From Nitrospirota bacterium (GTDB lineage Bacteria; Nitrospirota; UBA9217): a DNA stretch of 64,000 bases. The notes under the pieces were generated by a model. That model was not told where the DNA came from. It did not search any database and saw nothing but the letters and a program-made list of their open reading frames with translations. This document shows positions 38,724-41,910 of the stretch, piece after piece. Where the stretch lies: NCBI GenBank assembly GCA_963740085.1, contig CAVUCU010000004.1, positions 641,996 to 705,995 of the forward strand, written 5' to 3'. The position numbers were made by a program, and so were the translations under genes. The stretch's first letter is position 1. The number at the start of each line of letters is the position of its first letter.

Positions 38724-38913
38724 GAGAAACCCTCACTATAATAAATTGGCCCAAAATATTGATCCTTTTTTACGACATCACAAGTTCATAACTTATATAA
38801 ATCGGCAAACTTCGCGTGTTTGCAAGTGATCATATTACAGATATTCATCAAATTCATCAAGACTATTCTATTTAATTGGACCAAGGTAAATCATTTTAAT
38901 AAACTTAAATAGA

Positions 38914-39336
38914 TTATAACTCAAACTTGAAATTTATTACTCTGAAGACGAGGTATCGTGTATCTGCTGGAACATCAATCTTTTTTGCATCCGAGGAAAA
39001 GTTAATTGCGTATTCGCTTCTCTTATGAAGAATAATGTTTTTCTCATATGATATTCCTCCACGATTAACAAGCAGTTCATCATGAAATTGTCTGCTCTTT
39101 ATTCTTAGTTTTGACATTTGCTCAAAACCCGTAGCAAGAATCATATTCAGATGTACTTGCAAGTCTTGATCTGAAGTATTTCGAACTATCAAAACGCCAT
39201 TTTTACCACACCACCTCCAACTATAATTACTATCTCCCTCCAAGCTTAAAAAATCTTTTTTCCACAGCATGCTAACGTAATCTATATCCCTGAAAGTTAG
39301 AGTCAGTATAATATGATATCGAGATGTTTTCAACAT
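38914..39336 (-). CDS. hypothetical protein in the AT-rich segment
   Basis: ORF only, with no recognisable motif. Confidence 0.3.
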   Translation of the reverse strand: MLKTSRYHIILTLTFRDIDYVSMLWKKDFLSLEGDSNYSWRWCGKNGVLIVRNTSDQDLQVHLNMILATGFEQMSKLRIKSRQFHDELLVNRGGISYEKNIILHKRSEYAINFSSDAKKIDVPADTRYLVFRVINFKFEL

Positions 39337-39453
39337 CTATATCGTTCTCTGAAGAATTTATCATAGTTTTAATAAATGAGTTTCTGTCCTGGCTCTTATC
39401 AACTAAATAAGAGATGAAATTTCTGTTGGGATATAATATATTATCGTCTATTT

Positions 39454-40530
39454 TTATTTTTTTCGAAAATGCCCCTCTCGCATTTTCAACAAAACCAGAA
39501 ACTTCTTATAATTTGAGTACGTATATAAATTGGCATTTCTTGAGTAGATTACGGGTTCTCCAAGAACCATATCAATTTTTGTGATTTTGGCCAGAACGAT
39601 AAATTGATTGGGGTTTTTAAATTCTTGATCATATTTTAAAAAGTATACATTTGATTTATCCATGCCCTGAAGGTTAAGCCCTACAAGTTCCTCTTTAGTT
39701 GAAAGGATAGTAATATTTTTCCCGGTTTTAAATTTTATATAGTCGCTCCAGTAAGGAGCGAAAGTTACCGCTATATTTATATGGCCATATAATGATGGGG
39801 CATAAATTACACTATTTTCGGGAATAGAGATAAATTCGCCCGTTTTAAGCAGCTGGTCAATCGTTCTCCACTTGAGATGGGACTGTGTCTGGCTAAGGGT
39901 AACGTGATAATTTGAGTAGTCGACGATGAAACTCGTAATGGCTATAATAAGGCCTACAGATACAGCATACAACAATAATAACAACTTATGGGATGAGAAT
40001 AACTGTTTCACATAAATTATCAATATTGTGAAAAACAAAACTGTTCCAAAATATGAAAAGAAGGTAACCGTATGAGCTAATGAACCAGCAGACACAACCC
40101 AGTACTGATATTTTGTTGTTAACGCTATAAGAAAGACGGGTGCAATGAAGAGTGTTATGGACAATAATGCGGTTAACCAATAGGTTCTCTTGCTGAAGTT
40201 GGTGGATTTATGTTGAATGAGGTGATAAACTAAATATGAACTGATCAATGCCTTGGTAATCCACTCTACCCTGGCATTCTTAACAATATGAATAATGCTG
40301 GAACGATGGCCCTCAAAAGCGGCAGAGTAATCATTAAACATCGGGGTAAAATGACTATATATATAAGTTGGCAGAGAACTAACGCTATATTGGTACATAA
40401 CTTTGGCAAAAGAGATGAAAGAAAAGTGGGAAATAATATTTCCCTCATAACGAGACGGATAAAAATGTCTAAATGTAAAATAGATGGCTGCATATATGAA
40501 TAACGCTGCTGCATGAGGGATAATTCTCAA
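39454..40530 (-). CDS. polytopic membrane protein (C-terminal part of a putative GT-C/Wzy-like glycan-modifying enzyme)
   Basis: It has many TM helices, AT-rich codon usage, and a 4-nt ATGA overlap with the upstream ORF. It might be one gene together with 40527-41132. Confidence 0.4.
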   Translation of the reverse strand: MRIIPHAAALFIYAAIYFTFRHFYPSRYEGNIISHFSFISFAKVMYQYSVSSLPTYIYSHFTPMFNDYSAAFEGHRSSIIHIVKNARVEWITKALISSYLVYHLIQHKSTNFSKRTYWLTALLSITLFIAPVFLIALTTKYQYWVVSAGSLAHTVTFFSYFGTVLFFTILIIYVKQLFSSHKLLLLLYAVSVGLIIAITSFIVDYSNYHVTLSQTQSHLKWRTIDQLLKTGEFISIPENSVIYAPSLYGHINIAVTFAPYWSDYIKFKTGKNITILSTKEELVGLNLQGMDKSNVYFLKYDQEFKNPNQFIVLAKITKIDMVLGEPVIYSRNANLYTYSNYKKFLVLLKMREGHFRKK

Positions 40531-41132
40531 AAAAGCTTTCGAAAATGCTTCTTGAGTTTGTTGATTGGGATCACTTCTATAAAAAAAGAGACAAAGATAA
40601 AAAGAACAAAATACATCGCGAATACTTCATAAAGTAATAACGTAAGGAAAAACAAAACGGTACTAATAATCAGGCGACTTATTTTATTTGTATCAACATA
40701 TTGCTTGAAATAAATCAAGCATATCATAAAAATACAGATGCCTGCATGAAAGACAAACGGGTATGAAGTTAAAAGGTAATGGTCCCACATATTCTGTAAA
40801 CCGACTAAATAAATAATGATGAGAAGAACCGCATAATGAAGCGATCTGTAAAATGTATAAATCATGTATCCAAATAATAGAATATTTACAATTATAATGC
40901 CGATAGAAATGAATTTATAATATACAAAGTTTCTTACGAGATATGGTACTTTGGCGAATTGGTAAGCAACAGGCATGAAAAATCTGCCTTGATCTTTAGC
41001 AATATTAATTTCACCGGTAATTCCAGTATGTTTTGAACTACTTAATTCTAGCACCATGTCGTCATTCGTAGTAAAACCAACATTGATTAATGGATAAAAA
41101 GTAAAAACGATCAATATGCCAATCATTAACAT
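40527..41132 (-). CDS. polytopic membrane protein with a DD motif in the first extracytoplasmic loop (putative GT-C fold N-terminal part)
   Basis: TM1 is followed by GFTTNDDMVLEL and then multiple TM helices. GT-C enzymes (ArnT, PglB, PMT, GtrC types) carry an acidic motif in this position (established knowledge). Confidence 0.4.
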   Translation of the reverse strand: MLMIGILIVFTFYPLINVGFTTNDDMVLELSSSKHTGITGEINIAKDQGRFFMPVAYQFAKVPYLVRNFVYYKFISIGIIIVNILLFGYMIYTFYRSLHYAVLLIIIYLVGLQNMWDHYLLTSYPFVFHAGICIFMICLIYFKQYVDTNKISRLIISTVLFFLTLLLYEVFAMYFVLFIFVSFFIEVIPINKLKKHFRKLF

Positions 41133-41910
41133 GATGGCCGAGCTAACCTTTTTGTCAGAAACTAAATTTCCATCAAGAAAATCCTCTTCCCGAACGCTTA
41201 TTGATTATTGATAATATTCAGCAATCTGCTCCAATATGCCTCGATTGAGTAGTTTTTCAGGAAGAACTCCCTTACGTTGGAGTAAAATCCTTCACATCTG
41301 ACTTTATCAAGCATCGTCGTATTCAGCACATCACGAAACTACTCATAGGGATCGTACGCGCATCCCGCTTTTGAGTCCACGATATGTTGGTTCAAATCAA
41401 AAACTGATCCAAACGGTCTTTTATGCCAAAACCGACAATGCTGTTCGGGACCTTATCTCTATAATAAATGTTCCTCGATTTTTCTCGGCATTGGTCATAA
41501 AAAGATGCGTAGAGAGAGGCCATGAAAATGAAGTAGTCGTCGTAGTCGTCTTAATAGCCCGATATATATTCAAGGAAGTGACTGGCGCATAAGGCCCTTC
41601 AAATTTCATCCACTCCTCACTAAGGCCGAGCGCAGTTTTCTTTTTTGGTATGCTGCGAAAACCGCGCTCACAACGGCTTCGGATTGTTGAAAGATCCCTT
41701 GCGTCTTCGGCAGCTATAACAGCTCAAGAAACAGGCTGAGGATGTATCCGATGACGGAAACACGATATGATTTCGTTATGACAAATCTCATCAGAAGGTC
41801 TTTTATGCGTGCATTATTCCCCTCCTCCTCTTTTGAATATTACAAGTTTGAGAGGATTTCAGGCTTTGATAACTGTCCACTCCTTGATTTATCTAAAAGG
41901 AGTTGGAATC

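Follow-up and report, generated by a model that had tools for sequence, protein, structure and literature searches.

The DNA analysed here, a 64,000-nucleotide window of contig CAVUCU010000004.1 from a Nitrospirota bacterium, contains an AT-rich segment (positions 38724-41300) in which an initial annotation, made from the sequence alone, had noted a 140-aa hypothetical protein and two overlapping membrane proteins regarded as candidate GT-C glycosyltransferases. We found that the segment carries the pieces of a single gene, and we propose, with a probability of roughly 0.7, that this recently inactivated gene encoded an integral membrane glycosyltransferase of the GT-C fold that would have placed a side-branch sugar onto the O-antigen outside the cytoplasm.

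Three reading frames and a spacer are the remains of one gene

The segment contains three minus-strand open reading frames (ORFs), at 40527-41132 (201 aa), 39454-40530 (358 aa) and 38914-39336 (140 aa). Together with the spacer between them, they are pieces of one frameshifted gene of about 753 codons. Indeed, the 117-nt spacer separating the 358-aa and 140-aa ORFs proved to be open in the third frame upon three-frame translation, and conceptual repair gave a protein of 739 aa that retrieved 22 proteins, each about 750 aa long, from 5.8 billion clusters. The closest homologs spanned 98-100% of the repaired translation, with 82% identity for P0001 (753 aa) and 51% for P0002. The gene encoding P0001 lies on a metagenomic contig, L001, at a syntenic position between wbdA-like and rfbF genes. 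This intact ortholog (L001:4912-7173) shares 89.7% nucleotide identity with the window DNA, from which it differs by exactly four 1-bp indels. The 140-aa ORF, previously taken for a gene of its own, encodes the C-terminal part of this protein, since it aligns with the C-terminus of all full-length homologs, including their W.W...N and D.R.L.F motifs.

The initial annotation had considered either one gene split by a frameshift where the two membrane ORFs overlap or two separate subunits. The split gene stands, with the 140-aa ORF as part of it, but the single shift at the overlap does not: there are four shifts, and the one responsible for the switch from the first ORF to the second falls in the T-run at 40581-40587, about 50 nt upstream of the overlap. 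A frameshift at the T6 run of the overlap itself (40530) was dropped once the DNA alignment to the ortholog had placed it there. About 19 codons at the end of the 201-aa ORF are outside the ancestral frame, and the frame of the 358-aa ORF upstream of its TTG reads FYRSDPNQQTQEAFSKAFLRIIPH, which corresponds to FYRSDPDHHAQEPFSKAFLRIIPH in P0001. The 4-nt overlap, given earlier as ATGA, is actually TTGA (TTG start, TGA stop). Its style is that of translational coupling, and one may ask whether the fragments are expressed separately as a two- or three-subunit enzyme, or whether programmed frameshifting restores the frame. We find this barely credible, because 22 of 22 homologs are single chains, the tail of the first ORF is out of frame, translation of the second ORF would have to begin at a TTG without a recognisable ribosome-binding site, and four shifts would have to be bypassed, one of them three codons past the start.

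After repair, the gene shows zero in-frame stops and keeps all family-conserved motifs. Its ratio of non-synonymous to synonymous substitution rates (dN/dS) against the intact ortholog is 0.31, and that of the aldolase gene in the same pair is 0.05; the values for the thiamine diphosphate (ThDP)-enzyme and rfbH genes against L001 were not used, being unreliable because these segments are not collinear or orthologous. The absence of stops, the intact motifs and the dN/dS of 0.31 point to a recent inactivation. The four 1-bp frameshifts leave no intact, expressible copy in the window genome, the first of them lying straight after the start codon, and if they are biological, as we take them to be, the gene is dead.

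A predicted GT-C fold

The repaired protein belongs to a family that is real, widespread and uncurated, and which we name TTNDD after its signature motif. A profile of its transmembrane (TM) domain retrieved 2,399 representatives at E <= 1e-3 (50%-identity clusters, 1.84 billion searched), 1,693 at E <= 1e-10 and 648 at E <= 1e-30. No Pfam or NCBIfam model matched the membrane domain when the fragments and the homologs (22 plus 10 in Pfam, 8 in NCBIfam) were scanned, DUF7024 and DUF5077 being found solely on alternative C-termini of a few members, and the family profile gave only noise against PDB sequences (E >= 0.47).

We relied on structure prediction, which the initial annotation had suggested as a check. 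The AlphaFold (AF2) models of P0001 had a pLDDT of 86.7 for the full protein and of 88.2, with a pTM of 0.89, for the TM domain alone. The intact ortholog is predicted to have 11 TM helices, within the 7-13 of GT-C polytopic domains, and a C-terminal half made of beta-sandwiches that match carbohydrate-binding modules (CBMs) in a Foldseek search against the PDB. Because such matches dominated the list obtained with the full-length model, the TM domain was modelled separately. Both membrane ORFs described earlier as polytopic are present; the 358-aa ORF is polytopic in its N-terminal half only, the remainder being soluble and periplasmic.

In fragment 1, the first hydrophobic helix is followed by GFTTNDDMVLEL (TTNDDMVLEL), the acidic first-loop motif that had raised the idea of a GT-C enzyme. 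In the model, the loop after TM1 (residues 32-82) comprises about 50 residues and includes two short helices (37-48 and 52-62). Residues T36, D38 and D39 are invariant in 22 of 22 homologs, and TTNDD is retained in the window. Moreover, nearly all invariant residues lie in predicted periplasmic loops or at periplasmic helix ends (T36/D38/D39, G63/R64, W130/H132/T136/S137/P139, E183, G245, P269 and residues of the C-terminal domain), QGR, WDHxLLTSYP and E183 being the other conserved motifs that face the periplasm. Basic residues are found at the cytoplasmic helix ends, which places the N-terminus inside the cell.

When the TM-domain model was compared with the PDB using Foldseek, the only high-probability matches of the membrane part (0.8 or more) were GT-C enzymes. 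They comprise PglB (5ogl_A, E 9.5e-3, probability 1.0, TM-score (TMq) 0.43), yeast and human STT3 (probability 0.63-1.0, TMq 0.35-0.43), Pmt4 (probability 0.90, TMq 0.41), Pmt1/2 (probability 0.97, TMq 0.31, root mean square deviation 7.1 Å over 264 columns), DPY19 (probability 0.82-0.91, TMq 0.27-0.34) and EmbB (probability 0.54, TMq 0.37, or 0.99 and 0.25 with the full-length model). Viral predicted structures, searched in the hope of reaching GtrC-type proteins of phages, gave little information, namely an Oenococcus phage protein without a characterised function (TMq 0.47) and entries lacking a name.

The product might be another polytopic envelope protein, such as a Wzy-type polymerase, a WaaL-type ligase, a flippase or transporter, or an acyltransferase, a reading that could draw on the weak structural E-values and on the lack of a curated GT-C match in the Pfam and NCBIfam scans. 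We consider it highly improbable. In Pfam, the fragments and homologs gave no match to PF04932 (Wzy_C/O-antigen ligase), and no MATE, PST or acyltransferase domain was found. No WaaL, Wzy or SEDS structure was among the Foldseek PDB matches of the full-length and TM-domain models, and transporters, of the major facilitator superfamily or other kinds, appeared with TMq of 0.11-0.18, below 0.2, and a probability of about 0.1. Furthermore, an ABC-transporter-type cluster requires no Wzy, and an invariant acidic pair after TM1 combined with a periplasmic CBM-like tail would suit a GT-C enzyme. Structure prediction thus yielded no Wzy-type or transporter fold and favoured the GT-C architecture that had been anticipated, as only GT-C enzymes matched consistently, though modestly, and the acidic motif is invariant. 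We conclude with moderate, not definitive, confidence that the modelled membrane protein adopts a GT-C fold.

Gene neighbourhood and the putative sugar donor

A GtrA/GtrB pair had been put forward as the partner of these ORFs. The window does contain a GtrA-type and a GtrB-type gene, on the same strand and in the same gene string as the GT-C-type gene, 9 kb downstream of it, and both are thereby genetically linked to it. We surveyed 13 independent loci of the family. In six of them (a Deltaproteobacteria metagenome-assembled genome (MAG), a Joint Genome Institute (JGI) contig, Gallionella, Methylophilaceae and two Paenibacillus), the family member is followed within 2.5 kb, on the same strand, by a full-length GtrB-type gene; three of the six had GtrA too, and one more locus carried a GtrB-type gene 6 kb away. 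The proposed partnership gains support from the gtrA and GtrB-type genes at 28271-29624 and from the family members located directly upstream of GtrB-type genes in other phyla. This recurrent adjacency to GtrB-type synthases is indirect evidence that the family may use a polyprenyl-phosphate-linked sugar donor.

The genes lying between the GT-C-type gene and gtrB are rfbF, rfbG and rfbH, together with genes for a ThDP enzyme, an acylating acetaldehyde dehydrogenase, a 4-hydroxy-2-oxovalerate-type aldolase and two reductase/epimerases. Judged by gene content, this is a set for an acyl-branched 3,6-dideoxyhexose of the erwiniose type. Erwiniose biosynthesis was proposed for Pectobacterium atrosepticum in a scheme that combines genes for a cytidine diphosphate (CDP)-4-keto-3,6-dideoxyhexose with the ThDP enzyme ErwE, the aldolase ErwI, the dehydrogenase ErwJ and the reductase ErwF (PMC9306805). 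The window GtrB has homologs of 72-78% identity across Paenibacillus. In P. dendritiformis (L024), the homolog (76%) ends a block rfbH-rfbF-rfbG-ThDP-dehydrogenase-aldolase-reductase-gtrB-gtrA, and a 92% homolog (L025) resides in a variant of the cassette without the aldolase and the dehydrogenase, a yersiniose-like set. The conservation of the block between the window and P. dendritiformis suggests an inter-phylum transfer of the cassette and a lipid-linked branched dideoxyhexose donor. Likewise, the conserved coupling of the CDP-sugar pathway with GtrB and GtrA suggests that the branched CDP-sugar is passed to polyprenyl phosphate and added outside the cytoplasm.

The mechanism that we propose would proceed in three steps. 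First, the GtrB-type enzyme would load a sugar onto undecaprenyl phosphate (Und-P) at the cytoplasmic face. GtrA would then flip the lipid-linked sugar to the periplasm. Finally, the GT-C enzyme would put this sugar as a side branch on the finished, exported O-polysaccharide, before its ligation to the lipid A-core. The acceptor would be the Wzm/Wzt-exported polymannose made by the WbdA-like polymerase, and the CBM-like tail would hold this glycan. As to the donor, we speculate that the gene encoded the last step of a system using a CDP-derived, polyprenyl-phosphate-linked, acyl-branched 3,6-dideoxyhexose of the erwiniose/yersiniose type, a tentative idea to which we give somewhat less than even odds. 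In that case, the branched sugar would enter through the GtrB-type enzyme in its CDP-activated form, be flipped by GtrA and be attached outside the cytoplasm by a GT-C of the TTNDD family or one interchangeable with it. Within an incomplete coverage of the literature, we found no paper tying GtrB/GT-C systems to CDP-derived dideoxyhexoses. If true, this would represent a new donor class and an entry point of CDP-sugars into periplasmic glycan modification; rare branched dideoxy sugars may be added extracytoplasmically through a lipid-linked intermediate, which is relevant to serotype diversification and glycoengineering.

Alternatively, the GT-C enzyme might not use the sugar of the adjacent operon at all, taking instead a common Und-P-hexose (e.g. 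Und-P-Glc) made by this synthase or by a different one, or it might act on a glycan other than the polymannose O-antigen. Its closest non-orthologous homolog (51%, contig L014) belongs to a cluster without a CDP-sugar pathway, where its neighbours are a methyltransferase and another GtrB (about 190 bits). Orphans exist among the family members, and, in a relative 98% identical to the window, the CDP-sugar/gtrBA cassette recurs beside unrelated membrane proteins. In the window, however, the gene is co-directional with the pathway and gtrBA in the same string, and the cluster shows no obvious cytoplasmic glycosyltransferase reserved for the CDP-sugar. Moreover, across phyla the CDP-sugar pathway stays evolutionarily tied to this GtrB/GtrA pair, which calls for an extracytoplasmic transferase for that sugar. 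We regard a different sugar or glycan as unlikely.

A low-GC gene in an exchangeable slot

The drop in GC content that had been perceived by eye was borne out by computation, the profile being far from uniform. With a GC content of 0.334, the segment 38724-41300 is the lowest stretch of the 64-kb window when all 2577-bp windows are compared (mean of the rest 0.483, standard deviation 0.030, minimum 0.392; z = -4.9). The recovery announced on both sides was found as well, GC being back to about 0.5 within rfbF (<=38723) and beyond approximately 41300-41650. GC at third codon positions (GC3) is 0.31-0.38 in the three fragments against 0.50-0.63 in neighbour genes. For gtrA, wzm and wzx, which also encode membrane proteins in the window, it is 0.47-0.54; the hydrophobic amino-acid content alone therefore does not explain the AT-richness. 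The GC content of the GT-C-type gene is 0.334 in the window and 0.338 in the intact ortholog on L001, indicating that the low GC was already present in the ancestral gene and did not arise by drift or decay after its death. Elsewhere in the family, the 51%-identity homolog has a GC content of 0.40 (flanks 0.48-0.51) and a deltaproteobacterial member one of 0.52 (flanks 0.55-0.58).

Comparison with relatives supports an exchange of this gene. Contig L020, the relative mentioned above, matches the window at 98.3% identity between 26602 and the rfbF start codon (38723), upstream of which the two are unrelated; in place of the GT-C-type gene, its slot (1083-6436) contains genes for a 644-aa protein, a GT2 of 231 aa and a 784-aa protein. 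On the other side, L014 is collinear with the window down to 41855 and then diverges. According to these breakpoints, the AT-rich gene sits in a replaceable slot between conserved modules. Its low GC is the mark of an exchangeable cassette, and the horizontal acquisition suggested earlier is strengthened by the GC3 values and by the unrelated genes in the L020 slot.

The 644-aa and 784-aa slot proteins were tried as homologs of the GT-C-type gene; BLASTP found no homology, and neither protein has a Pfam match. Their C-termini nevertheless carry motifs resembling the W.W...N and D.R.L.F of the family, so that they may be alternative GT-C-type transferases. A near homolog of the 644-aa protein directly follows a TTNDD-family member in a Deltaproteobacteria MAG (L009:12181-14430). 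The region 41173-41855, from the end of wbdA to the start of the GT-C-type gene, shows patchy conservation with L001 (two short blocks of 81-84%) and short ORFs only; it is probably junction debris of the cassette exchange.

Decay of the O-antigen cluster

The layout of the cluster, seen intact in L014, is by its gene content that of an ABC-transporter-dependent polymannose O-antigen, with gmd, an fcl-like gene, a GT4 gene, manC and manB downstream of gtrA. In the window, its backbone genes are ruined. The wzt-wbdD-wbdA genes, the last two of which correspond to a WbdD-like terminator and a WbdA-like polymerase, have accumulated about 60 indels relative to intact L014, many of them multi-base and outside homopolymers, and only short ORFs are left; the indels are densely clustered at 43720-44175 and 46140-46520 within the decayed block (41855-48400), and the 525-aa ORF at 44121-45698 is the N-terminal piece of a polymerase of about 1243 aa. 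Damage extends to rfbH (35416-36817), where a 1-bp insertion near 36595 cuts off the N-terminal 70 or so codons in comparison with L020, and to gmd (27048-28095), split into ORFs of 252 and 116 aa by insertions near 27434 and 27348 with respect to L020, whose own gmd is split as well. On the sister contig L001, the GT-C-type gene is intact but rfbF, rfbG and wbdA are broken. The two lineages thus erode the cluster independently.

With a backbone no longer made or exported, the GT-C enzyme has no substrate, and its four frameshifts fit relaxed selection. One could argue instead that the gene is intact in the organism and functional, the frameshifts being sequencing or assembly errors such as long-read homopolymer errors. 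Three of the four indels are 1-bp deletions, two of the four lie in A/T homopolymers of at least 7 bases (T7 and A7), and another is located in a T3 run; the gene has no in-frame stops after repair, its conserved motifs are intact, its dN/dS is 0.31, and related metagenomic contigs likewise show broken genes. Yet the breakage is concentrated in this cluster, where gmd and rfbH are broken and the indels of wzt-wbdD-wbdA are numerous and often multi-base and outside homopolymers, whereas the AT-rich, homopolymer-bearing gtrA and gtrB and the flanking clusters retain long ORFs. In addition, the fragments are absent as called proteins where the other proteins of the genome occur, consistent with an annotation as pseudogene, and a dead backbone polymerase and exporter would themselves relax selection on the GT-C-type gene. 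Assembly error is, in our opinion, quite unlikely. We take the locus to be what is left of a three-component system for side-branch glycosylation, within an O-antigen cluster that is itself in decay. Such a state agrees with relaxed selection on the surface polysaccharide of this lineage.

Two other features of the surroundings were recorded. The decayed ABC-transporter cluster is adjoined by a second polysaccharide cluster of the Wzx/Wzy type (49660-63961), which looks intact and comprises genes for a PST flippase, GT4s, a methyltransferase, a WbaP-like initiating transferase (opposite strand), a Wzy_C protein (55801-56967) and a polysaccharide deacetylase. Between the fcl-like gene and gmd, a 131-aa ORF (26599-26994) resembles by eye the four-helix-bundle '23S rRNA intervening-sequence' proteins.

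Several points weigh against the proposal of a GT-C enzyme for O-antigen side branches. The gtrB/gtrA genes of the window are 9 kb off and not adjacent to the GT-C-type gene; 4 to 5 of the 13 surveyed loci have no GT2 nearby and 2 have only a non-GtrB-type GT2 adjacent. Pfam, NCBIfam and PDB scans gave no sequence-level tie to any curated GT-C family, even the best structural match is modest (TMq 0.43, E 9.5e-3), and the fold depends on a model predicted from an alignment of only 20-22 sequences. The equation of D38/D39 with the catalytic Asp of solved GT-C enzymes is putative. Finally, donor, acceptor and enzymatic activity are inferred only, and the homopolymer positions of the indels leave room for assembly errors. 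For the window genome, the result is mostly a matter of tidying, as three hypothetical ORFs reduce to one pseudogene. More generally, a profile for the TTNDD family (signature TTNDD, QGR and WDHxLLTSYP plus the CBM-like tail) would improve the annotation of O-antigen and cell-wall glycan loci.

Table 1. Positions of the GT-C-type pseudogene, its fragments and frameshifts, and the associated genes in the window.
Feature	Position	Strand	Basis or remark
Wzm, decayed wzt, wbdD-like and wbdA-like genes (GC-rich decayed block)	41855..49478	-	91.4% identity to intact L014 genes
Whole pseudogene, putative GT-C-type membrane glycosyltransferase of the uncurated TTNDD family, about 753 codons	38914..41173	-	Homolog and ortholog alignments
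Ancestral ATG start	41171..41173	-	Alignment to L001
Frameshift 1, 1-bp deletion giving ATG GAA ATT TAG	~41167-41168	-	Window TTCTTGATGGAA-ATTTAG vs L001 TTCTTAATGGAAGACTTAG
Fragment 1, 201-aa ORF: TM1, periplasmic loop EL1, TM2-TM6	40527..41132	-	ORF, alignment, model
TTNDD codons, start of first periplasmic loop, putative catalytic acidic residues	41058..41072	-	Alignment and model
Frameshift 2, 1-bp deletion: T7 run vs T8 in intact ortholog	40581..40587	-	DNA alignment to L001
Fragment 2, 358-aa ORF: TM7-TM11 and start of periplasmic domain	39454..40530	-	ORF, alignment, model
Frameshift 3, 1-bp deletion in or beside A-run	39457..39463	-	CGAAAAAA-ATAAAA vs CGAAAAAAGCTAAAC
Coding 'spacer', third frame, KIKIDDNILYPNRNF...YYTDSNF	39296..39456	-	Homologous to residues ~565-627 of intact proteins
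Frameshift 4, 1-bp insertion, TTT vs TT	39293..39295	-	DNA alignment to L001
Fragment 3, 140-aa ORF: C-terminal beta-sandwich, CBM-like domain	38914..39336	-	Alignment and model
AT-rich intergenic spacer preceding rfbF	38724..38913	-	GC 0.23-0.34; low-coordinate end is the recombination breakpoint vs L020
CDP-sugar pathway between GT-C gene and gtrB	29656..38723	-	Set like the ErwE/F/I/J scheme (PMC9306805)
GtrB-type polyprenyl-phosphate glycosyltransferase, GT2 with C-terminal TM helices, 313 aa	28683..29624	-	PF00535; homologs named 'polyisoprenyl-phosphate glycosyltransferase'
GtrA-type small membrane protein, proposed lipid-linked-sugar flippase	28271..28672	-	PF04138, E 5.4e-16

Comparison with known systems

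Among solved structures, only the GT-C(A) enzymes PglB/STT3 (GT66), PMT (GT39), DPY19 and EmbB resemble the predicted TM domain consistently, and an acidic motif opens the first external loop in both. However, TM-scores reach only 0.27-0.43 at 9-14% identity, the periplasmic domains differ, and the acceptor is presumably a polysaccharide rather than a protein. In the Firmicutes, the CsbB/YfhO and GtcA-type teichoic-acid systems likewise combine a GtrB-like synthase, a GtrA/GtcA-like protein and an extracytoplasmic GT-C, and the TTNDD family also occurs in Paenibacillus beside gtrB/gtrA; unlike YfhO, it matches neither the YfhO model nor any other in Pfam.

Three-component systems and GT-C enzymes with CBM tails have been presented together with GT136, the Citrobacter youngae O1 ORF12 protein, a GT-C that adds ribofuranose side chains (PMC11127046). 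The predicted arrangement of the TTNDD protein is the GT-C layout outlined there. By its description, GT136 resembles the TTNDD family in its TM helices, in a periplasmic domain after TM1 and in a periplasmic CBM after TM11, and it modifies the O-antigen after polymerisation, as we propose for the window protein. It works with a polyprenyl-phosphoribose synthase and a MATE flippase, whereas the TTNDD family is accompanied by a GtrB-type GT2 and GtrA.

Another parallel is with the GtrABC systems (Gtr of Shigella and Salmonella, GmlABC of Klebsiella O2), which have the same three parts, namely a small membrane protein of the GtrA family, a GT2 of the GtrB type ending in TM helices and a polytopic GT-C-like protein of large size; in the case of Klebsiella O2, the backbone pathway is Wzm/Wzt-dependent in both. 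The differences are that the GT-C described here has no detectable similarity to curated families, that the trio is non-contiguous, a CDP-sugar pathway being inserted between the GT-C gene and gtrBA, that the likely donor is neither Glc nor Gal, and that the GT-C of the window genome is a pseudogene. Altogether, the function class would be that of a GtrC-type GT-C of three-component systems, an already known kind of enzyme of which the window holds a dead copy.

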